Shown: piece after piece, positions 8,514-59,732 of the stretch | Numbering within the stretch: position 1 is the first letter of the stretch | Layout: each line of letters begins with the position of its first letter | Source of the DNA: an uncultured Candidatus Saccharibacteria bacterium | Lineage (GTDB): Bacteria; Patescibacteriota; Minisyncoccia; Phycocordibacterales; UBA9973 | Assembly (NCBI GenBank): GCA_964591445.1 | Contig: CAZQAW010000001.1 | Span: 14,625-78,624, forward strand | Direction of reading: 5' to 3' | Length of the DNA: 64,000 nucleotides | Position numbers and translations under genes: made by a program | The notes under the pieces: generated by a model | What the model was told of the DNA's origin: nothing | Databases searched by the model: none | The model's input: the letters and a program-made list of their open reading frames with translations, nothing else

Positions 8514-11429
8514 TTACACCGCTACAATGTTAACAAGTCTTCCCTTCACGTAGACTATTTTGACGATCTTTTTGCCGTCAGTCCATTTTTTGATCATTTC
8601 GTTTTCCTGCGCTTTCGATTTGATGATTTCTTCGTCCATGTCTACCGGTATAATGAGTTCCGCACGAACTTTGCCATTTACCTGAAGCGCAATAGTGACT
8701 TCGTCGTCAACGATTTTCGATTCGTCATACTGTGGCCACGTTGAGAGATGGATAGAAGCCGTCTCGCCAAGCTCGTGCCACAGTTCTTCGGCAATGTGCG
8801 GCGCGAATGGAGAAAGGAGTTTGCAGAAAGTAAGGAGATCTTGTTTTGCAATTCCTTCTTCTTTTTCCCATAGGTTGAGTAGAATCATCATTTGGGAAAT
8901 GCAGGTGTTGAATTTATACTCGGCAATATCTTCTGATATTTTTTTGATTGCTTTGTGAAGCGCTTTGCTTGCAGTATCGCTTGTTGTTTTTCCTGCGTCA
9001 TTATTTTTTTCTACAAGCCTCCACACTCGCTCCAAGAATTTTCGCACGCCCACAACTCCATTCGGGTCCCAAGGATAATTTCCTCCGTCTCCATACGGAC
9101 CCATGAATGCCAAATACAATCGCACAGTGTCAGCACCCAAAAGCTGAACCACTTGGTCGGGGTCAATGACGTTACCTTTGGATTTACTCATTTTGTTTCC
9201 GTCCGGGCCAAGAATAAGTCCGCGATTGCGGCGCGCAAGATACGGCTCGGTTTCTTCCACCATGCCAGCATCGTGCATCGCCTTCACCCAAAAGCGTGAA
9301 TAGAGCAAGTGCATCGTTGTGTGTTCTGCTCCACCGAAATACATATTGATCGGCATCCAAGCTTTGCGAGATGCTTTGCTTGCAAATTCATTTTCATTTT
9401 TCGGGTCAAGATATCGATAGAAATACCACGAAGAGTCGACAAATGTGTCCATCGTTTCAACTTCCGGTGTCCAGCCTTCCCCAAAAATATCTGTCACTCG
9501 CTTTTTCAATTCAGCACTGCGAGCAAGCGGCGCAGTTCCGTCTGGAGTATGGTCAACATCTGTTGGCAAAAGCCACGGCAAATGTTCGTTCGGAACTGCA
9601 TGCGCTTTGCCCGCTGGGTCGTACACAATAGGAATCGGCACACCCCAATAACGCTGACGAGAAATTCCCCAGTCGCGCAAACGATAAGTGTTCACCATTT
9701 TTCCACCGACGTGTTCTGTGATTTTCTTTTTCGCTTCTTCAGACGGAAGGCCAGTGAATGTAGCGGAGTCTTCCAGTATTCCACAATCAGTTAAGCACGT
9801 AGTTTTAAATTTTTTCGCATCGCTTGTGGTGTCGTAGCCGAGTTCGATCGCACGAGCTACTGATTCATCCAAAAATCTAATGTAATGTTTCAATCCATCT
9901 TCGTCGTTGTGAGTTTCCCAATATGTTTTTATTTCTTCAGCCGTCTTCCAGCCAAGAGTAAATTTTTCGTGCGCTTCAAGTTTAGTTGGTTTTGTCTGGG
10001 CGCTGTTAAGAATGATCAAAAAGCATTCGGCTCGGGCCGAGCGATTTACCTGTTTAAGTGTATTAAAATAATGCGCATAACTTGATTCGATCCATTCGAC
10101 ATATTTGAAATCATACAACCCACTTTCTTCTGCAACTTCACGCAGAACTCCTTTTTCGACAGATTCTCCATCATCAACCCCGCCCGCAAACAAAAGTATT
10201 TTTCCGTTTTCAAATTCACTCACCGCATATTTCTGAGTTGCTGGATCAAAAATAATTCCAGCACCGCCATTTCGAAATTCTTCGTTTTCTCTCTTCTGTC
10301 CAGTTTCTCGAGCAATCACTTTTTTTATCGGCAAATTATATTTCTTCGCAAATTCAAAATCACGTTCATCGTGCGCTGGCACTGCCATTACCGCACCTGT
10401 TCCGTAATTTACTAACACATAATCTGCAACCCATACTGGCACTTCTTCGCCATTTGCAGGATTAATTGCTTTTATACCCTGGAGCTCTACTCCTGTTTTT
10501 TCTTTTGATTGCTGGCGGTCAAGGTCGGACTTCTTTTTCGACAGAGAAATGTATTTTTCAACTTCATTCCAATTTGAAATACTTTCTTTAAGTTTTGACA
10601 CAAGAGTATGCTCAGGAGACAACACAACATACGTAACACCAAACAATGTGTCAGCACGAGTAGTGAAAACCCGAATACTCTCCCTCTCCTGGCTAGGAGA
10701 GGGCTGGGGTGAGGTTGTAATTTTAAATTCAATCTCGCTTCCTTCGCTTCTGCCAATCCAATTCTTCTGCGCTTCTTTGATATGCTCCGGCCAATCCAAA
10801 GTATCCAAGTCGTCGATCAATCTGTCTGCGTATTTTGTAATGCGGAACATCCACTGGTCTTGATCTTTCTGTATCACTTCAGCACCACAGCGTTCGCAGC
10901 AGCCGTTTGTCACTTGCTCGTTTGCAAGCACCGTTTTGTCTTTCGGACACCAGTTCACTTGCGTTGTTGCGCGATACACCAAATCTTTTTTCAAAAATTT
11001 TGCGAACATCCACTGCGTCCATTTGTAGTAAGATGGATCGCACGTCACCACTTCTCGCGACCAATCAAACGAAGTTCCGATCGAGTAAAATTGCTCGCGC
11101 ATTTTATCCATGTGCGAGTATGTCCACACTTTCGGGTCTTGGCCAAGTTTGATAGCCGCGTTTTCAGCCGGAAGTCCAAAGGCGTCGAAGCCCATCGGGT
11201 AGAGTACATTAAAACCTTTCATTCGTTTGTAGCGCGCATACATGTCTGGAATAGCAAAAGCGTACCAGTGCCCGACGTGCAAATTCCCGGAAGGATAAGC
11301 AAATTCAACCAAAGTATAGAAATTCTCTTTGCCGGTAACGCTATCTTCTACACGGTATACGCCCTGTTCCCGCCAAGCATCCTGCCATTTCTTTTCGATA
11401 TCTTTATGGTTATATTCGCGCTTTTTCAT
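8514..11429 (-). CDS. leuS: Leucyl-tRNA synthetase carrying two insertions: a palindromic-element peptide and a Nudix-box domain.
   Basis: HVGH (HIGH motif), the CP1 editing domain TTRADTLFGVTYVV...AHDERDFEFA, VNTYRLRDWGISRQRYWG, and KMSKSKGN. The protein is 971 aa, longer than the ~860 aa typical of bacterial LeuRS. Confidence 0.95.
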   Translation of the reverse strand: MKKREYNHKDIEKKWQDAWREQGVYRVEDSVTGKENFYTLVEFAYPSGNLHVGHWYAFAIPDMYARYKRMKGFNVLYPMGFDAFGLPAENAAIKLGQDPKVWTYSHMDKMREQFYSIGTSFDWSREVVTCDPSYYKWTQWMFAKFLKKDLVYRATTQVNWCPKDKTVLANEQVTNGCCERCGAEVIQKDQDQWMFRITKYADRLIDDLDTLDWPEHIKEAQKNWIGRSEGSEIEFKITTSPQPSPSQERESIRVFTTRADTLFGVTYVVLSPEHTLVSKLKESISNWNEVEKYISLSKKKSDLDRQQSKEKTGVELQGIKAINPANGEEVPVWVADYVLVNYGTGAVMAVPAHDERDFEFAKKYNLPIKKVIARETGQKRENEEFRNGGAGIIFDPATQKYAVSEFENGKILLFAGGVDDGESVEKGVLREVAEESGLYDFKYVEWIESSYAHYFNTLKQVNRSARAECFLIILNSAQTKPTKLEAHEKFTLGWKTAEEIKTYWETHNDEDGLKHYIRFLDESVARAIELGYDTTSDAKKFKTTCLTDCGILEDSATFTGLPSEEAKKKITEHVGGKMVNTYRLRDWGISRQRYWGVPIPIVYDPAGKAHAVPNEHLPWLLPTDVDHTPDGTAPLARSAELKKRVTDIFGEGWTPEVETMDTFVDSSWYFYRYLDPKNENEFASKASRKAWMPINMYFGGAEHTTMHLLYSRFWVKAMHDAGMVEETEPYLARRNRGLILGPDGNKMSKSKGNVIDPDQVVQLLGADTVRLYLAFMGPYGDGGNYPWDPNGVVGVRKFLERVWRLVEKNNDAGKTTSDTASKALHKAIKKISEDIAEYKFNTCISQMMILLNLWEKEEGIAKQDLLTFCKLLSPFAPHIAEELWHELGETASIHLSTWPQYDESKIVDDEVTIALQVNGKVRAELIIPVDMDEEIIKSKAQENEMIKKWTDGKKIVKIVYVKGRLVNIVAV
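10676..10717. repeat. Copy A of the in-frame palindromic element (actct-ccctctcc-tggcta-ggagaggg-ctggggtgaggttg) inside leuS.
   Basis: Identical 36-nt core to the copies at 31229-31264 and 33731-33766. It forms an 8-bp perfect hairpin ccctctcc/ggagaggg. In the leuS frame it reads [13 protein letters not shown]. Confidence 0.85.
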
Positions 11430-11476: not shown

Positions 11477-12514
11477 TTACATCTTCATAGGCTCAGGCTT
11501 TGGGTAAGGTGGATACAAATCTTTGTCTATCGTTCGGTCGTAGCAGGTGCGGCCGGCTTCGTGATCCCATGAATCTCCGGCAATGCCTGGGTACGGCGCT
11601 ATTGCAGAAACAGCAACGTCGCGGCTTTCAGAAAACATCGGCTTCATGCCGCCACCGCTGTACTCGCTCCACCCTTCCGGCATCGGCTCGGCAAACGTTG
11701 CACAAAGTTTGAACGACAAGTCTCCAGTTTTTTCATATTCGTATATAAACCCTTTTTGGAATTCCGGATCGACAGGCACCATGTAGCTTGAAATCGGGTT
11801 CGAAAGGTCTTTCAAAGTTTCCGGCAATTTTTCTTTCTGTTGCCAGTACGAAATGATCTGCCATTGTATACTTTGGATGTCTTGCACGCGGCGTTCATCC
11901 AAGCGATACGCGCGCTGCTTCATTGGGCTACCCATTACTGCAAATGAAAATACAATGAGTGCCCCTACAAGGATTGCAGATTTGATAGCCATCCAAGTTC
12001 CAATATTACATCCAAGAATTTTTCGCATTCCGCGAAGCTCCCACATGTAATACATGCCAACCATTGCGGCGACAACAAGAGTAATAACAACTTTCAAAAT
12101 AAATCGTGTCGTAATTTCTCCTGAAACAAAGTATCGTACAAGTGTGACAAGGTCAACAGCAATTACCAAACCGGAAAGGAAAATGATGAGGTACAGCATC
12201 CATTTTTTAATGATAGCATCAACGCGCGCCAACTCTCCGCGAATGCTCTTTGTCCACAAACGCGACAGGATGAGGAATATGGGGAACATGATGATAAGCG
12301 TCGCAAGCGCAGTGCGCATTGCCTGATAGTCATACGTATTGTAGCCGTACGTGTACACTGCATTTAACGCATCCGGAAATTTTTTATCAAGCGTTGCAAA
12401 AACCAAATTCAAAAACGACGTCACGCTTGCAATGAGCGAGACGAGCACGCCGAGCGAAAGGAAGAAAAACTTTGGTGTAAGTGTATGTTTCTGTTGTTCC
12501 ATAAAAATATTCAC
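11477..12514 (-). CDS. Multi-pass membrane protein with a C-terminal extracellular domain (hypothetical).
   Basis: 345 aa with 5-6 TM helices in the N-terminal ~200 aa, then a soluble Pro/Tyr-rich C-terminus (YPPYPKPEP). No catalytic motif recognised. Confidence 0.6.
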   Translation of the reverse strand: MNIFMEQQKHTLTPKFFFLSLGVLVSLIASVTSFLNLVFATLDKKFPDALNAVYTYGYNTYDYQAMRTALATLIIMFPIFLILSRLWTKSIRGELARVDAIIKKWMLYLIIFLSGLVIAVDLVTLVRYFVSGEITTRFILKVVITLVVAAMVGMYYMWELRGMRKILGCNIGTWMAIKSAILVGALIVFSFAVMGSPMKQRAYRLDERRVQDIQSIQWQIISYWQQKEKLPETLKDLSNPISSYMVPVDPEFQKGFIYEYEKTGDLSFKLCATFAEPMPEGWSEYSGGGMKPMFSESRDVAVSAIAPYPGIAGDSWDHEAGRTCYDRTIDKDLYPPYPKPEPMKM

Positions 12515-12570
12515 ATGAACTGCTAATACTTATATAGTATACTAAACGTATAAGTTTACAAATTTGTGAT

Positions 12571-13167
12571 ATGACACCCAAACCGAAACAACCATTCAAA
12601 AAGCGCGAGCTTACAGACATCGAGAAAATGTCGATGGCGCTTACTCGTTGGGTCGGCTCGACAAAGTCGCTCGTTGCGCATACTGTATTTTTCGCTGTCA
12701 TGATACTCCTTGCCATTTCCGGTGTCGGTTTTGACAAAGTGCTTCTCATCCTCACAACGGTCGTTTCGCTTGAAGCAATTTATCTTTCCATTTTTATCCA
12801 AATGTCTGTGAACCGCCAAGCTCGCCGACTGCGTGAAGTGTCGCAAGATATCGAAGAGATTCAAGAAGACGTTGAGGAAATCCAAGAAGATGTCGAAGAA
12901 ATTGCCGAGGATGTGGAAGGCATTGAAAAAGATATCGATGAAATCCAAGAAAATGTGGACGAGATTCAGGAGGACGTGGAAGACATTACCGAAGATGTCG
13001 AGGATATTACCGAAGACGTAGACATGTATGAAAAAGAAGAGAAAGTCCGCGATGAAGCGATGATGAACAACATTCAGAACACGCTCGCGGAACTGATGCG
13101 AGAAATTCAAGAATTGAAAGAAAGCAAAGCAAGCAAAACTGTCGTGAAGAAAAAATTGGAAAAATAA
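12571..13167 (+). CDS. DUF1003-like small membrane protein with an acidic heptad-repeat tail.
   Basis: LTRWVGSTKSLVAHTVFFAVMILL and the following TM match the DUF1003 pattern. The C-terminus is about 8.5 tandem heptads, EDVEEIQ/EDVEDIT. Confidence 0.6.
   Translation: MTPKPKQPFKKRELTDIEKMSMALTRWVGSTKSLVAHTVFFAVMILLAISGVGFDKVLLILTTVVSLEAIYLSIFIQMSVNRQARRLREVSQDIEEIQEDVEEIQEDVEEIAEDVEGIEKDIDEIQENVDEIQEDVEDITEDVEDITEDVDMYEKEEKVRDEAMMNNIQNTLAELMREIQELKESKASKTVVKKKLEK
12850..13029 (+). repeat. Tandem 21-nt coding repeat, about 8.5 units (gatgtcgaagaaattcaagaa-like).
   Basis: Direct tandem repeats visible in the nucleotide sequence, encoding (D/E)(V/I)(E/D)EI(Q/A/T)E heptads. Confidence 0.7.
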
Positions 13168-29435: not shown

Positions 29436-32144
29436 TTATTTCTTCTTCAAAACTTTCTTCAAATATTGCCCGGTGTAAGACTTTGGTGTATTTGCAACTT
29501 CTTCCGGAGTTCCTTTGGCTACCAAATGTCCGCCGCCGATACCGCCTTCGGGCCCAAAGTCGAGAATATAGTCTGCGCATTTTATGAGATCCATGTTGTG
29601 CTCGATAACGACGACTGTATTCCCTTTGTCGACAAGACGGTTCAACACACCGATCAAATTTGCAACGTCATCATAGTGCAACCCGACAGTTGGTTCGTCG
29701 AGCAAGTAAATGGTTTTTTCAATATGAGGTCGATATAGTTCAGAAGAAATTTTCACACGCTGCGCTTCCCCGCCAGAAAGTGTCGTTGCGCTTTGGCCGA
29801 GCTTCACGTATCCAAGCCCGACATCCATGAGAGTTTTCAAGCGGTCATAAATAGCAGGAATATCTTCGTAGAATTTCAAACCTTCTTCAACGGTAAGCTG
29901 AAGAATTTCGTAAATATTCTTTTTCTTGTATTTTACTTTCAAAGTTTCTTTGTCGAAACGCTTGCCACCACACACGTCACACGTCACATACACTGTCGGC
30001 AAGAAATGCATTTCTACAGCGATTTCTCCATTTCCTTCACACGCTTCGCAGCGGCCACCTTTGACGTTGAATGAAAATCGGTTTGATTTCCAACCGCGGA
30101 TTCGTGATTCTTCGCTTTCAGCAAACAAGTCGCGGATAAATGTAAACGCGCCTGTGTATGTCGCAATGTTTGACCGCGGCGTTCGTCCGATCGGAGATTG
30201 GTCAATCAAAATCGCTCGAGACAAATATTCGGTACCAGTAAATGTTGCTGCATTAAAGACCTTTGCGCTACGATATTTGCGTTCAAAACGCGCTTGCAAA
30301 TTTTGGTGTACGATTTCATACATAAAAGAAGATTTGCCGGAACCAGACACACCAGTAATGCACACCAACTTTCCGAGAGGAATTTCAGCATTCACATTTT
30401 TGATATTGAAAGCATGTCCGCCGACAACCTTGAGCGAACCTTTGTCAGAGGTGCGGCGTTTTTCTGGAATAGGAATTCGCACTTCTTCGCGCAAGTACGC
30501 AAGGGTGCGAGATTTTGATGTGTTTGTTTTTGCGGCAAGCAATTTTTCTAAATCATCTTGCACTATCACTTCCCCGCCATGCACGCCGGCTTTCGGGCCG
30601 ATGTCTACCAGATAATCTGACGCGTAAATCGTATCTTCATCGTGTTCAACAACGATAATCGTATTTCCCAAATCTCGCAAATCTTCAAGCGTTTTGATCA
30701 AGCGTTCGTTATCGCGCTGATGCAAACCGATCGTCGGTTCGTCAAGCACGTACATTGCGCCGACGAGGCGTGAGCCGAGTTGTGATGCCAGACGGATACG
30801 CTGCGCTTCTCCGCCAGACAAAGTATTTGCCCGGCGTTCAAGCGCCAGATATTCCAAGCCGACGTTCAACATAAATTGCAATCGGTCTTCAATTTCACGG
30901 ATCACCGGTTTTGAAATTTCTTTTTCTTTTGCAGTCAGTTTAAGCTCGATGAAAAAGTCCGCCGCGTCTTGGATTGAAAGCGCAGTCAAATCTACAATGT
31001 TTGTTTTTTTAGTACCAAGAAACACATTGAGTGCTTCGATACGCAGACGCTTGCCGCCACAAACGTCGCAAGGTTCTGTACCCATAAAATATTTGCTTCC
31101 GAGCCCATTACATTCTGGACAAGCTCCGTACGGCGAGTTGAAAGAGAAAAGTCGCGGCTCAACTTCTGGGAAAGAAAAGCCGTCATTCGGACAAGAGAAT
31201 TTTGCAGAAAGAAGAAACTCTGAACTCTCCCTCTCCTGGCTAGGAGAGGGCTGGGGTGAGGTTGATCCAAATTGTATCGTCACCAAACCTTCACTTTCCA
31301 AAAGTGCGCGTTCGATAGACTCAGCTAAACGCATGCGCGCGTCGGCCGGGTTATCTGCAAATTCATGAAGCGCAAATTCGTCCACCATCACGTCGATATT
31401 GTGCTGCTTTGTTTTTGAAAGTTCGATACGGTCACGCAGATTTTTTATAGTCCCATCAAGTCGAACTTTGCTGTAGCCTTTGCCAAGCAAGTCGTACAAA
31501 AGCTGGTAGTACTCGCCTTTTCGTCCGCGAACCACCGGCGAATAGATCGTAATCGGTGTTTCGCTCCACTGCACTCCCATCACTTTTTTTGAGCCTTTGG
31601 TATTTTTTTTATACGTTTCAACTTTCTCGAGCATGAAATTCAAAATTTCTTCGTTCGAAAGTTTTTTGATTTCTTCGCCGCACTGTGGACAATGTGGCCG
31701 GCCGATACGCGCGTACAGCACGCGCAAATAGTCATAAATTTCGGTAATCGTTGCCACAGTTGAACGCGGGTTGTTCGAGCGAGATTTTTGGTCGATAGAA
31801 ATTGCCGGGGAAAGCCCGGAAATTTCATCAACTTCCGGCTTGCTCATTTGCTTCAAGAATTGTCGCGCATACGAAGAAAGAGATTCAACGTATCGTCGCT
31901 GGCCTTCAGCAAAAATAGTGTCGAACGCCAAAGAAGACTTTCCTGAACCGGAAAGCCCTGTGATCGCGATCATCTTGTTGCGCGGCATCTCAACATTAAT
32001 ATTCTTCAAGTTGTGTGTTCGAGCGCCTTTGACGATAATTTTTCCTTCACTGTCTTTTTTCATATATAAGCCAAGCGCACCCGGCAAGTCTCCTTGAGGG
32101 TGTCTATCTCTCTTTAACTTCTTTAAGTATACCACATATGCCAT
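29436..32144 (-). CDS. uvrA: Excinuclease ABC subunit A, carrying the 13-aa palindromic-element insert.
   Basis: Two ABC ATPase modules: [15 protein letters not shown] / [12 protein letters not shown] / [11 protein letters not shown], and [13 protein letters not shown] / [11 protein letters not shown] / [11 protein letters not shown]. Zinc-finger Cys pairs are present. Confidence 0.95.
31224..31264. repeat. Copy B of the in-frame palindromic element, inside uvrA.
   Basis: actctccctctcctggctaggagagggctggggtgaggttg is identical to copy A over 41 nt. In-frame it reads [13 protein letters not shown]. Confidence 0.85.
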
Positions 32145-32939: not shown

Positions 32940-35099
32940 TTATTTTTCCGGTTCCAACTTTGCGCGTAAAACACTAATCTCGTCGCGAACAATCGCGGCC
33001 GTTTCAAAGTCGAGCTCTTTGACGGCTCTCGACATTTCTTTTTCTTTTATTTTGATGATTTTTTCGTAGACTGCCAAGTTGCGCTCTTCGTCAGAAAGTC
33101 TTGCAAGTTTTTTCTCTTCTTTTTTATCGAGCGCTTTGCGAGCTTTGCCAAGCACTTCAAAATCTATCGCAAGCTCAGCGTTCACCGCTTTTGCATGTTC
33201 AGATTCCATTTGTTCAGTAATGTCTTTGATATTTTTCTTGATCGTTTTCGGAGTAATGCTGTGCTTTTTGTTGTACTCCATTTGCACTGTTCGGCGGCGA
33301 TTTGTTTCGGCAATTGCACGTTCCATCGAGCCTGTCATGTTGTCTGCATACAAAATCACGCGACCCTGCGCGTTTCGAGCTGCGCGGCCGATAGTCTGGA
33401 TAAGCGATGTTTCGCTTCGAAGAAATCCTTCTTTGTCTGCGTCCAAAATGCCGATCAATTCTACTTCCGGCAAATCCAACCCTTCGCGGAGCAAGTTCAC
33501 TCCGACCAAACAATCAAATTCCCCTTTTCGAAATGCCGTCAAAATTTTAATTCGGTCAATTGTTTTAATATCGCTATGCAAATATTCTGATTTTATTTTT
33601 CGCTCTTTCAAATACGCAGCCAAATCTTCCGCCATTTTTTTCGTTAGCGTTGTTGCAAGCACGCGCCCGCCGCCCTTGATATTTGCAACCGCTTCTTCAA
33701 TAAAGTCTTGGACTTGGCCTGGGTAGTTCCCCCTCTCCTGGCTAGGAGAGGGCTGGGGTGAGGTTGATGCAGCCACCGGCTTGAGCGTAATTTCCGGATC
33801 AAGAAGTCCAGTTGGACGAATGATTTGTTCTACTATTTGGTCACTGTTTTCTCGTTCATAGTCGCTCGGAGTCGCTGAAGTATAAATCACTTGGCTTACG
33901 CGTTCTTCAAATTCGTTGTATTTAAGCGGGCGATTGTCTTTCGCGCTCGGCAAACGAAAACCGAATTCCACCAAAGTATTTTTACGAGCCTGGTCGCCAG
34001 CGTACATGCCGTGAAGCTGCGGAAGCGTCACATGCGATTCATCGATCACCACCAAAAAGTCCGCAGATCCATCTTTGTGATGTGGAAAATATGAAAGCAA
34101 TGTTTCTGGCGGCTCGCCTGCTTTTTTACCAGACAAATGTCGAGAATAGTTTTCGATTCCGCTGCAATAGCCGATTTCTTTGATCATCGCCAGGTCATAC
34201 GTCGTTCGTCGTTTGATTCGCTCCGCTTCCAAAAGCTTTCCTTCTTTTTCAAAAAGTTTGAGCTGGTCTGCAAGTTCTGCTTTGATCGCTTTTATTGCTT
34301 TTTCTTTTTTAGTTTCATTTGTCAAAAAGTGTTTTGCCGGAAAAAGGAAAATACTTTCTGGATTGTCGAGAATCTGCGAAGTCACCGGATCAATTTTTAA
34401 AATCTGCGTAATTTTTCCCGCTACGATTTCAATCGAAAGCATAAACGTTTCCGACACTGGCATGATTTCCACTTTATTACCAAGTGCACGAAACTGCCCT
34501 GAAGACAAATCTGCGTTTGTACGCGTAAAATGAATTGAAACTAAATTCGAAAGCAAATCATTGCGCGCCATTTTCATCCCAGGTTTTAATTCCAAATGTT
34601 CTTCGCGATATTCTTCTGGACTTCCCAAACCGTAAATACACGAAACCGACGCAACGATGATGACATCTTTTCTCGTAAGCAAAGATTGTGTTGACGCATG
34701 ACGAAGACGATCAATTTCTTTGTTGATCTGCGCGTCTTTTTCAATATACGTATCCGTCACCGGCATGTAAGCTTCCGGCTGGTAGTAGTCGTAATACGAA
34801 ACGAAATAATGCACCGCATGGTCTGGGAAAAATTCTCGATACTCTTGCGCAAGCTGTGCTGCAAGCGTTTTGTTGTGAGCAATCACCAAGGTTGGCTTTT
34901 CAAATTGCGCAATCACATTTGCAATAGTAAAAGTTTTACCAGTTCCCGTAGCACCAAGAAGGGTCTGCTTTTTCATCCCTTTTTTGAGGCCACTTACGAG
35001 GCCCTTGATAGCCTGAGGCTGGTCGCCATCCGGCTTATATTCGCTTGTAAGTTTGAAAAGCGGCATAGGTATCAGTACATTGTAAGCTATTTTGGGCAA
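32940..35099 (-). CDS. uvrB: Excinuclease ABC subunit B, carrying the palindromic-element insert.
   Basis: LLGATGTGKTFTIANVI (Walker A), VVIDESHVTLPQ (DEAH-like), the helicase C-terminal motifs, and the UVR domain at the C-terminus (ETAAIVRDEISVLRAKL). Confidence 0.95.
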   Translation of the reverse strand: MPKIAYNVLIPMPLFKLTSEYKPDGDQPQAIKGLVSGLKKGMKKQTLLGATGTGKTFTIANVIAQFEKPTLVIAHNKTLAAQLAQEYREFFPDHAVHYFVSYYDYYQPEAYMPVTDTYIEKDAQINKEIDRLRHASTQSLLTRKDVIIVASVSCIYGLGSPEEYREEHLELKPGMKMARNDLLSNLVSIHFTRTNADLSSGQFRALGNKVEIMPVSETFMLSIEIVAGKITQILKIDPVTSQILDNPESIFLFPAKHFLTNETKKEKAIKAIKAELADQLKLFEKEGKLLEAERIKRRTTYDLAMIKEIGYCSGIENYSRHLSGKKAGEPPETLLSYFPHHKDGSADFLVVIDESHVTLPQLHGMYAGDQARKNTLVEFGFRLPSAKDNRPLKYNEFEERVSQVIYTSATPSDYERENSDQIVEQIIRPTGLLDPEITLKPVAASTSPQPSPSQERGNYPGQVQDFIEEAVANIKGGGRVLATTLTKKMAEDLAAYLKERKIKSEYLHSDIKTIDRIKILTAFRKGEFDCLVGVNLLREGLDLPEVELIGILDADKEGFLRSETSLIQTIGRAARNAQGRVILYADNMTGSMERAIAETNRRRTVQMEYNKKHSITPKTIKKNIKDITEQMESEHAKAVNAELAIDFEVLGKARKALDKKEEKKLARLSDEERNLAVYEKIIKIKEKEMSRAVKELDFETAAIVRDEISVLRAKLEPEK
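33731..33766. repeat. Copy C of the in-frame palindromic element, inside uvrB.
   Basis: ccctctcctggctaggagagggctggggtgaggttg is identical to the 36-nt core. In-frame it reads [12 protein letters not shown]. Confidence 0.85.
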
Positions 35100-35635: not shown

Positions 35636-36862
35636 TCAAATACTGTATTTTTTAAAAAAGTTGGCTTTGTATTCCTCAAAATTCCCTTCTACAATGGCAT
35701 TTCTCATTCCTTTGACGAGGTGTACTATAAAATACAGGTTGTGAATAGTCGCAAGGGTTCCACCCAACATTTCCTTCGCCCTAAAAAGATGCGCGACGTA
35801 TGCGCGAGTGTAGTTTTTGCAAGTATAGCATCCGCAGTTTTCTTCGATCGGAACAAACGCTTCTTTGTGCTCCGCATTGAACATGTTTATTTTGCCGGCA
35901 TGAGTATACAAAGTGCCATTGCGAGCCATGCGAGTCGGAGCAACACAGTCAAAAAAGTCGACACCGTTTTCTACACCCATAAATAAATCTTCGGGCTCAC
36001 CAATACCGAGCAAATGGCGCGGTTTGTTTTCTGGCAAAATTTCGTTCACCCATTTGACCGCAGTCGACATATCTTCTTTTGCAAAACTTCCGCCAATACC
36101 GAAGCCGTCAAAATCCATACCGCCGATAAACTCTGCCGACTTTTTTCGTAAAGACTCTTCTCTGCCACCTTGGACTATGCCAAACAATGCTTGCTTGGTT
36201 TTTCTTGATTTATGGAAATCTAAAGACCGTTTTGCCCAAGCGTGCGTGCGATGAAGCGCTTCTTCTTGATATCGAAATGGTTCGGCTGGCGACGTACATT
36301 CGTCAAATGCAAAAATAATATCTGCACCCAAATTCTGCTGAATCTCGATCGATTTTTCTGGAGTAATGTAGTACAAAGTGCCATCAATATGCGAACGAAA
36401 CGAAACTCCGTCCGCGCCAATAGTCGCAAGTTTTGGAACACCTTCGTCTGCGCTTGATCTTTCTGTAATTTGTAAACTTGGATCAATAGCTTTCGTAATT
36501 TTTGAAATATCCTTGCCGTATGCCGCGCCAAGCGAAAACACTTGGAAGCCGCCAGAGTCTGTCATCATCGGGCCTTTCCAATTCATAAACGAGTGGAGTC
36601 CTCCGGCTTTTTGTACGACTTCGTCTCCAGGTTGTAAAAGCAAGTGGTATGTATTTGCAAGCATGACATCTGCGCCAAGCGACTCCAACATTTCGGGAGT
36701 AATAGCTTTGACAGTTGCTTTTGTGCCAACGGGAACGAATGCTGGAGTTGGAATATCTCCGTGCGGAGTGCGGAAGATACCGGCGCGCCCAAGCATGGGC
36801 GCGCCGGTAGTGTCTTCTAATTTCTTTTCAATATCAAAACGGAAGTGCATGTTATTGTTCAA
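35636..36862 (-). CDS. tgt: Queuine tRNA-ribosyltransferase (tRNA-guanine transglycosylase).
   Basis: FRTPHGDIPTPAFVPVGT, LGADVMLANTYHL and the C-terminal zinc site CGCYTCKNYTRAY...H. Confidence 0.9.
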   Translation of the reverse strand: MNNNMHFRFDIEKKLEDTTGAPMLGRAGIFRTPHGDIPTPAFVPVGTKATVKAITPEMLESLGADVMLANTYHLLLQPGDEVVQKAGGLHSFMNWKGPMMTDSGGFQVFSLGAAYGKDISKITKAIDPSLQITERSSADEGVPKLATIGADGVSFRSHIDGTLYYITPEKSIEIQQNLGADIIFAFDECTSPAEPFRYQEEALHRTHAWAKRSLDFHKSRKTKQALFGIVQGGREESLRKKSAEFIGGMDFDGFGIGGSFAKEDMSTAVKWVNEILPENKPRHLLGIGEPEDLFMGVENGVDFFDCVAPTRMARNGTLYTHAGKINMFNAEHKEAFVPIEENCGCYTCKNYTRAYVAHLFRAKEMLGGTLATIHNLYFIVHLVKGMRNAIVEGNFEEYKANFFKKYSI

Positions 36863-59274: not shown

Positions 59275-59296
59275 CCCCTCCTTGGGTAAGGAGGGG
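59275..59296. repeat. 22-nt CT-rich hairpin palindrome cccctcctt-gggt-aaggagggg (left flank of the DUF559 gene).
   Basis: Exact reverse complement of the 59711-59732 copy. Confidence 0.7.
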
Positions 59297-59306
59297 TCGA
59301 CGCGCT

Positions 59307-59693
59307 TCAGGCGCGCGGGGGTGGTAATTTCTGTAGTTCAACCTTTATCCGATCAACTACTGAGGAAAGTTGAGTGAGAATTTCTTTATTACTAAAACGC
59401 ACAACTCTTTTTCCTAAAGATTCAAAATAGACAGTTCGCTTAGTGTCATATTCTTCTGCATCTTTTTCATAATGCTGAGAACCATCAATTTCTATAATGA
59501 GAAATTTTTTAGGACAATAAAAATCTGCAATGTATCCTCCAATACTATGCTGCCTACGAAATTTTACCCCGAGTTTATTATTTTGCAATTGCAACCAAAG
59601 AACCGCTTCTTCATGCGTTCCATGATTTCTGAGTTCTCTTCTTCTATCAACAAATTGAGGAGTGTTGTGAATAATTGGCATACAAGTTACCAA
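59307..59693 (-). CDS. DUF559-family protein (Vsr-like/PD-(D/E)xK endonuclease fold).
   Basis: ...EEAVLWLQLQNNKLGVKFRRQHSIGGYIADFYCPKKFLIIEIDGSQH...KRTVYFESLGKRVVRFSNKEI matches the DUF559 pattern. The start is TTG at 59693, or an internal ATG at 59681. Confidence 0.7.
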   Translation of the reverse strand: MVTCMPIIHNTPQFVDRRRELRNHGTHEEAVLWLQLQNNKLGVKFRRQHSIGGYIADFYCPKKFLIIEIDGSQHYEKDAEEYDTKRTVYFESLGKRVVRFSNKEILTQLSSVVDRIKVELQKLPPPRA

Positions 59694-59710
59694 CCCCAGC
59701 GCAAGCGCTG

Positions 59711-59732
59711 CCCCTCCTTACCCAAGGAGGGG
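59711..59732. repeat. 22-nt CT-rich hairpin palindrome cccctcctt-accc-aaggagggg (right flank of the DUF559 gene).
   Basis: Reverse complement of 59275-59296. Preceded by the GC palindrome cagcgcaagcgctg at 59697-59710. Confidence 0.7.

Follow-up and report, generated by a model that had tools for sequence, protein, structure and literature searches.

The window analyzed here, a stretch of 64,000 nucleotides (nt) from an uncultured Candidatus Saccharibacteria bacterium (contig CAZQAW010000001.1, positions 14,625 to 78,624), carries three copies of a short palindromic element, each inside a different essential gene: leuS, uvrA, or uvrB. The open reading frames (ORFs) of these hosts were named LeuRS, UvrA, and UvrB by comparison with solved structures, and the sources of the nearest UvrB and LeuRS homologues point to a Paceibacteria/Nomurabacteria-like member of the candidate phyla radiation (CPR). 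An intergenic gap of the same window holds a gene for a DUF559 domain protein that is itself bracketed by inverted repeats of a related architecture. Here we place the element in the BoxC/PIT/TM repeat family, describe its copies as recent in-frame insertions, and consider the association of such repeats with DUF559 genes as a clue to how they may spread.

Results

Three identical copies in essential genes

The 36-mer CCCTCTCCTGGCTAGGAGAGGGCTGGGGTGAGGTTG was found exactly, on the plus strand, at 10682-10717, 31229-31264, and 33731-33766 (within copies A, B, and C, respectively; Table 1). It did not occur in any of 100 dinucleotide-preserving shuffles of the window, and beyond the three copies no further match was present in the window, even when three mismatches were allowed. 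Between copies A and B the identity covers 41 nt, and among all copies (36-41 nt) it includes synonymous third codon positions. These results bear out an earlier note on this DNA, which had reported an identical palindrome three times in frame in leuS, uvrA, and uvrB, the longer identity of copies A and B, and a common orientation relative to the host gene. All three hosts are encoded on the minus strand.

Within these minus-strand ORFs, the copies share one frame and orientation and are read as a near-identical peptide of 12-13 residues. This agreement is not significant (chance ~1/9) because only three frames of the element are open, one in the plus orientation and two in the gene sense. The remaining three of the six frames contain a stop, and the statement of the earlier note that there is no stop in either direction thus applies to one-half of the frames only. 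In base composition the element (25/36 bases G or C) stands apart from the window (G+C ~43%). All three copies are located at domain junctions of their host proteins. An assembly artifact was rejected as an explanation since two independent JGI assemblies (L122 and L123) contain the uvrA copy as well. An intron, an intein, or a translational bypass was rejected as well: the element is too short, its frame is open, and there is no stop that would need bypassing.

A variant of the BoxC/PIT/TM repeat

The hairpin of the element is CCCTCTCCT-GGCT-AGGAGAGGG, in which a stem of 9 bp without mismatch encloses a loop of 4 nt (-9.7 kcal/mol when folded as DNA, z = -2.9); the earlier note had described 8 bp and a 6-nt loop. 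The 3' part, taken at that time for a mere tail, is a third conserved block, GGGTGAGGT, and the order of blocks is CCCTCTCCT / GGCT / AGGAGAGGG / CTG / GGGTGAGGT.

A repeat of this architecture is known as BoxC, PIT element, or TM-ECO intrastrand triplex motif (TM), names that go back to Bergler 1992, Hoyne & Maher 2000, and Holder et al. 2015 (PMC4666352). The pattern given by Holder et al. 2015 is CCCTCNCCC-N3-6-GGGNGAGGG-N3-GGGNGAGGG, of which 3610 copies were counted in 262 proteobacterial genomes, including 23 in E. coli K-12 that are "always located intergenically" (PMC4666352). In vitro, single-stranded DNA of the motif folds into a stable intrastrand triplex of the purine-motif type, which was not seen in vivo; PIT elements showed no promoter or terminator activity, and no mobility genes were found nearby (PMC4666352).

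The window element has the 9-nt C block, a loop within the range of 3-6 nt, the complementary 9-nt G block, a 3-nt second loop (CTG), and the mirrored second G block GGGTGAGGT; the last position of the stem is T/A and not C/G. The three blocks are near-identical in sequence to those of BoxC/PIT/TM-ECO, comprising a CCCTCTCC(C/T) hairpin, CTG, and GGGTGAGG(G/T). Each of the nine triads that the window variant would form is permitted in a purine-motif triplex (6 G*G·C, 2 T*A·T, and 1 A*A·T). The single departure from the published pattern is the terminal triad, which is changed from C·G*G to T·A*T in a manner coordinated on all three blocks. Intergenic location is a habit described for E. coli and lies outside the published sequence pattern; the three window copies and copies in at least eight other host genes are situated within ORFs.

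In a genome scan with one genome per species, the query CCCTCTCC-N6-GGAGAGGGCTGGGGTGAGG was matched exactly in at least 120 loci, Enterobacter and other Proteobacteria included. Among the matches listed were Alpha-, Beta-, Gamma-, and Deltaproteobacteria, Cyanobacteria, Nitrospirales, Verrucomicrobiota, Bacteroidota, and one Saccharibacteria genome, as well as Chloroflexota/Dehalococcoidia with many copies per genome. An Enterobacter-type copy matched 4898 of 5426 complete E. coli genomes, at a median of 6 places per genome, and the E. coli copies are 93% identical to it. Copy numbers vary from 1 to 29 among E. coli strains, and TM-ECO is reported to be missing from Salmonella. A degenerate, recognizably related BoxC-like copy, ccctcaccctaaccctctccccagaggggcgagggga, is located upstream of fabI in E. 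coli K-12. Rfam contains no family that matches the element, the only hits being chance matches to eukaryotic miRNAs and lncRNAs far under threshold. A literature search for an exact 19-mer of the element and a metagenome scan with an exact 34-mer each returned no match.

In the genome scan, in which the positions concerned were left free, the terminal base of the third block covaried with stem pair 9, G being found with C·G in 104/119 cases and T with T·A in 9/9. In the metagenome set described below, which was forced to end in T, T occurred with T·A in 38/52. These counts, which are not phylogenetically independent, are consistent with a constraint linking all three blocks. By its sequence and architecture, the window element is identified as a variant of the known cross-phylum BoxC/PIT/TM repeat family.

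Filled and empty sites

In 93 of the best 120 homologues of UvrB, the segments RP(I/V)xx and GxYxGQ(I/V)QDFI follow one another without additional residues. The window insert is present only in the identical protein P0001; at this site, the remaining 26 bear other inserts, 7-59 residues in length. In a relative with a UvrB 87% identical to that of the window (L124/L126), the uvrA and uvrB sites are both empty, and uvrA is exactly 13 codons (39 nt) shorter than the window uvrA. A comparison of the filled and empty uvrA sites revealed no clear target-site duplication. A miniature inverted-repeat transposable element (terminal inverted repeats plus target-site duplication, 50-500 bp) was rejected on this ground and because of the size of the element, 36-41 nt.

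The closest relative (L122/L123; 95% amino acid identity in UvrB and 96.2% nucleotide identity in uvrA) has the same insertion in its uvrA, identical in sequence and site. Its uvrB (L122, 7819-10014) contains a different in-frame insert of 108 nt, the junction of which is identical to that of copy C (GTGGCTGCA / CTACCCAGGC). This insert is a triplex-type unit with a long second loop and a second homopyrimidine/homopurine hairpin.

In LeuRS, the spacer preceding CP1 (recognized by VFTTR(P/A)DT) comprises 10-12 residues in 82/120 homologues and 20 in the window protein, and 17/120 homologues have whole domains of 122-211 residues at this hinge (equivalent to ~10680-10740 of the window). The element sites of UvrB and LeuRS are both length-variable insertion hotspots. 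An AlphaFold2 model of the window UvrB (mean pLDDT 72) places the insert in a coil at 430-450, with pLDDT <50 at 436-445. The proposal of the earlier note that the copies are inserted DNA at insertion-tolerant sites, and not an ancient peptide motif, is thus upheld by the UvrB and uvrA orthologue alignments, in which the copies are missing from relatives, and by the position of the inserts, in a low-confidence coil in UvrB and just before the CP1 motif in LeuRS. A conserved peptide motif was rejected since orthologues are without the insert. Judged by these alignments, leuS, uvrA, and uvrB, which are unrelated essential genes, acquired their copies recently.

In-frame copies in other genes

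A metagenome scan for the ...GAGGTT variant yielded 56 loci, in which the element is found in short-ORF or intergenic settings and also inside real genes. The host genes in these contigs encode PolA, Tgt, Mur ligase, RHS/YD-repeat proteins, type IX secretion C-terminal domains, and a methylase-like ORF. A CPR-like DNA polymerase I (L157/L182) has at least four in-frame inserts resembling the triplex motif, one of them within the conserved finger-domain region DIH..TA...F......R..AK (DIHEATARDIF-NLTPALSSRGEGAE-VTPDMRRAAK).

Four frame and orientation readings of the element were observed in the metagenome contigs: NLTPALS..GEG, TSPQPSP..ER, PHPSPLL.RRG, and PSP..ERAGVR. Between loci, loop sequences vary and the stems are kept. 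Because other genomes read the element in other frames and in the other orientation, these comparisons identify the DNA, that is, the hairpin and its mirrored third block, as the conserved entity, and not the peptide. Since the metagenome host genes use several frames, with variable loops and conserved stems, in-frame survival inside genes is, on the sequences compared, a general habit of the family in low-G+C, gene-dense genomes. We found no report in the literature of BoxC-type repeats surviving in frame inside genes.

DUF559 genes bracketed by triplex motifs

The DUF559 gene of the window is bracketed by inverted CCCCTCCTT-GGGT-AAGGAGGGG hairpins at 59711-59732 and 59275-59296. Each is followed by a second GC hairpin and then by GGG(T/G)TGGTA, in which 8/9 positions of one copy and 9/9 of the other mirror AAGGAGGGG. 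We regard this cassette as a candidate relative of the enzyme system that would spread such elements. An intrinsic-terminator-like hairpin, GCAGCGC-GGTAA-GCGCTGC-TTTTT, is located just downstream of the cassette.

Three of the 17 LeuRS homologues with whole domains at the hinge (P0136, P0176, and P0211) contain DUF559 (PF04480) in frame at the very hinge that harbors the solo copy of the window, with motif-like peptides on both sides. For P0176, which was checked at the DNA level, there are true inverted repeats with the full three-block architecture at both DUF559 junctions (AGCCCATCCC-cga-CCCTTCCC-aaa-GGGAAGGG ... CCCTTCCC-tt-GGGGAAGGG-cag-GGATGGGCT).

A DUF559 profile built from the LeuRS-inserted domains and E. 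coli YcjD was run on six-frame translations of 176 motif-seeded loci (4.5-13.5 kb). The domain was detected in six loci (L002, L072, L155, L080, L046, and L166), at a distance of at most 175 nt from a TM in every case (positional chance ~7e-7), and motifs are present on both sides of the DUF559 gene in L002, L072, L155, and L080. On the CPR-like contig L155, the DUF559 ORF ends in a window-type TM (...NKTSPQPSPLEERE / ...ELNKTSPQPSPLEEREKF), and the outermost repeats are inverted copies that share one loop. In L166 (~12100-13100), DUF559 is part of an intein-like insert (ending in VHNC) of a 980-codon methylase-like ORF, and the DUF559 domain is itself split by a triplex-motif insertion.

An independent test used loci seeded by DUF559 homology in viral and proviral contigs, of which the best 36 were searched for perfect GC-rich homopyrimidine/homopurine hairpins with a stem of at least 8 bp. 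There were 31 hairpins at up to 200 nt from the domain (24,047 bp) versus 5 farther away (59,350 bp), corresponding to an ~15-fold higher density near the domain. A mirrored third block (at most 1 mismatch, within 25 nt) accompanies 25/36 hairpins, compared with 13% for random placements. Each locus has its own repeat subtype, which is the same on both sides of the gene, an arrangement of cognate repeats that RAYT genes and their REPs are known to show.

Compared with the PDB, the DUF559 profile matched 3hrl ("endonuclease-like protein") with E = 2.6e-37 and 3r3p ("mobile intron protein") with E = 3e-4, the latter of which we take to be the homing endonuclease I-Bth0305I. E. coli ycjD, which encodes a DUF559 protein, ends in a motif-like hairpin, with a BoxC-like copy ~150 nt beyond it, upstream of fabI (L186, K-12 1348500-1352500). 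The gene is present in 3378 of the 5426 complete E. coli genomes (62%), and the content of the interval from fabI to sapF varies; in the one strain inspected for an empty ycjD site, efflux genes occupy the interval. Among the papers searched that mention DUF559, none links it to repeats. Across the loci compared here, DUF559 genes are physically associated with inverted cognate motifs, and this arrangement suggests that the DUF559 nuclease may mobilize the repeat.

Other features of the window

UvrA (Table 1) is without ~100 residues of solved structures (~320-420 of chain 9gxk_A), and close relatives likewise. A NUDIX domain (PF00293; motif GGVDDGESVEKGVLREVAEESG) occupies residues ~376-547 of LeuRS; it is missing from solved LeuRS structures and is frequent among Paceibacteria LeuRS homologues. 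The domains inserted at the LeuRS hinge in homologues include alpha/beta-hydrolase, DUF559, ASCH, and a further NUDIX domain. The 5' part of tgt contains a perfect 14-bp GC-rich palindrome, TACCGGCGCGCCCA-AGCA-TGGGCGCGCCGGTA (36778-36809), which, judged by eye, adds no residues compared with E. coli Tgt. An ORF at 12571-13167 (+) for a highly acidic repeat protein (EEIQEDVEEIQEDVEEIAEDVEGIEKDIDEIQENVDEIQEDVEDITEDVEDITEDV) is overlapped by a long ORF on the opposite strand.

Table 1. Repeat copies, host genes, and DUF559 cassette of the window
Feature	Position	Strand	Remarks
Copy A, triplex-motif (TM/BoxC-type) element in leuS	10677-10717	+ (leuS on -)	13-residue reading in gene sense
Copy A, C block	10682-10690		
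Copy A, loop	10691-10694		
Copy A, G block	10695-10703		
Copy A, second loop	10704-10706		
Copy A, mirrored G block	10707-10715		
Copy B in uvrA	31224-31264	+ (uvrA on -)	Insertion versus empty site of ~87% relative: 39 nt, 31224-31262
Copy C in uvrB	33731-33766	+ (uvrB on -)	36-nt core identical; residues 434-446 of 708-residue UvrB
leuS	8514-11429	-	LeuRS, 971 residues with NUDIX insert; element in hinge just before CP1 editing domain
uvrA	29436-32144	-	Longest ORF, 902 residues; true start probably the later MKKDSEGK
uvrB	32940-35066	-	708 residues, identical to database protein P0001; ORF 32940-35099
DUF559 cassette, intergenic gap	59275-59732	-	ORF 59307-59681; Pfam PF04480, E = 1e-32

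Discussion

We consider it probable that the three copies are solo BoxC/PIT/TM units of the T·A*T variant that were recently copied into essential genes, with trans-mobilization by DUF559 as the preferred means of spread. In this gene-dense, Paceibacteria-like genome, three unrelated essential genes recently gained the unit, and selection, given almost no intergenic space, would filter for in-frame, stop-free insertions in loops. Judging from the occupied sites, the copies that persist would be those that comprise a multiple of three bases, keep the frame open, and are situated in a hinge or loop tolerating extra residues. Because the frame is open, we infer that the element is read through and translated as a Ser/Pro/Gln-rich linker of 12-13 residues, which in UvrB is predicted by AlphaFold2 to be disordered. 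Most likely, it is selfish DNA or has no effect on the host proteins. The preferred mechanism is trans-mobilization by a DUF559-family PD-(D/E)XK nuclease resembling Vsr and the EDxHD homing endonucleases, which would recognize the structured repeat and promote its copying in a homing-like or REPIN-like manner.

Several observations weigh against this explanation. The DUF559 gene of the window is flanked by a TM subtype other than that of copies A-C, no cognate DUF559 nuclease for these copies was seen within the 64 kb, and a DUF559 gene is nearby in only ~3% of TM loci. Neither a target-site duplication nor a fixed target motif is evident at the copies, which share only (A/T)CA beside the element. 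The LeuRS insert exceeds the usual spacer by only 8-9 residues, so that it may not stem from a clean 39-nt event, although the nearest LeuRS from which the ancestral spacer could be judged has an identity of only 69%. Around the E. coli copies, Holder et al. detected no genes for mobility, nor did they observe the triplex in vivo (PMC4666352).

Some of these points are accommodated by the main rival explanation, in which no dedicated enzyme is involved: replication or repair is held up at the structured DNA (hairpin or triplex), copies reach other loci through template switching or break repair, and selection keeps the in-frame ones in tolerant loops. Such a process would agree with the missing target-site duplication, with a LeuRS event that was apparently no clean gain of 39 nt, and with the different inserts that sister lineages carry at one uvrB junction. 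It would further agree with the locally raised sequence variability of TM-ECO loci, which are hotspots of small indels and rearrangements, and with the block that PIT elements impose on DNA polymerase in vitro (PMC4666352). However, it leaves unexplained both the inverted cognate motifs around DUF559 genes in many phyla and the arrival of identical 36-41-nt units in unrelated genes, and we consider enzyme-free spread unlikely.

It is considerably less probable that the element has been selected as a signal acting in cis, such as a hairpin in the mRNA that pauses ribosomes at domain boundaries or a DNA structure that promotes local recombination. The location of all three copies at domain junctions and the fold of the sense RNA of the element (-17 kcal/mol) would be in line with such a role, and Holder et al. 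speculated on an adaptive role of instability (PMC4666352). Yet close relatives function without the inserts, other lineages have unrelated inserts at the same sites, PIT elements are without promoter or terminator activity (PMC4666352), and domain junctions are simply the places that tolerate insertion.

A REP/REPIN-type repeat moved by a RAYT (IS200-like Y1) transposase is very improbable. The element is a short, GC-rich, dispersed, and non-autonomous palindrome of REP-like size (20-40 nt), and the REP/REPIN-RAYT systems (REPtrons) also combine dispersed palindromes of this kind with a presumed enzyme gene bracketed by inverted cognate repeats. However, there is no GTAG or CGTC tag, as defined in PMC3733652, at either end of the 41-mer. 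Moreover, the mirrored third block is foreign to REPs, and the gene beside the motifs encodes a PD-(D/E)XK DUF559 protein and not an HUH/Y1 transposase (the window was not scanned for RAYTs); mobilization is putative in the present case.

The last alternative, a conserved functional peptide (ancient linker) or a member of the Rickettsia palindromic elements (RPEs), retains hardly any probability and is regarded as already refuted by the orthologue alignments: the same peptide does occur in three proteins, in frame as with RPEs, but the insert is missing from orthologues, the DNA identity of the copies includes third codon positions, and the element is read in other frames in other genomes. The RPEs that Ogata described in 2000 are reportedly ~100-150 bp long and confined to Rickettsia, whereas the present element measures 36-41 nt and occurs across phyla, and membership was rejected on the difference in size. 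Both the element and the RPEs are palindromic repeats that entered essential genes in frame and are missing from orthologues, RPEs being found at surface positions with the function of the protein kept. To this extent, the miniature analogue of RPEs proposed in the earlier note is apt. Its size, its triplex-type third block, and its cross-phylum distribution set the element apart from RPEs, and its place is in the BoxC/PIT/TM-ECO family. The notion of a selfish in-frame palindrome was right in spirit, but it concerns a variant of a known repeat family and no new miniature RPE.

Like the known BoxC/PIT/TM-ECO repeats, the solo units favored here are part of a family that is dispersed, strongly conserved between copies, and present in many bacteria with locally variable surroundings. 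The host of the window element belongs to the CPR (Patescibacteria), whereas Proteobacteria were reported and Cyanobacteria mentioned previously, and the copies are within essential coding genes, in contrast to those of E. coli (PMC4666352). The link to DUF559 is seen here, and PMC4666352 does not describe one. With the EDxHD/Vsr-like homing endonucleases (I-Bth0305I, PDB 3r3p), the DUF559 genes share the profile match reported above and their occurrence in an intein-like insert (L166) and in the LeuRS insert. They differ in that DUF559 cassettes stand alone or are fused in frame, have triplex-motif inverted repeats at their ends, and are found outside group I introns.

A broader proposal, which we put forward tentatively and hold to be somewhat more doubtful than not, is that a widespread and so far undescribed class of selfish cassettes that encode a DUF559 nuclease has BoxC/TM repeats as its cognate termini and would be a PD-(D/E)XK counterpart of REPIN-RAYT. 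The solo and paired motifs would then be non-autonomous derivatives, and in gene-dense CPR genomes both solo motifs and cassettes would survive in frame at hinges of LeuRS, UvrA, UvrB, PolA, and Tgt.

In conclusion, BoxC/PIT/TM repeats were recognized in the early 1990s and are present in hundreds of genomes, and their origin, spread, and function are still unexplained. New here are the CPR host group, the setting in coding regions of essential genes with filled and empty alleles, and the association with DUF559. This association makes an old question, namely, what spreads BoxC-type repeats, testable with a concrete candidate partner. If the link to DUF559 is functional, it would explain a long-standing orphan repeat, give a role to a large domain of unknown function, and provide a source for some of the numerous CPR protein insertions that have so far lacked an explanation.

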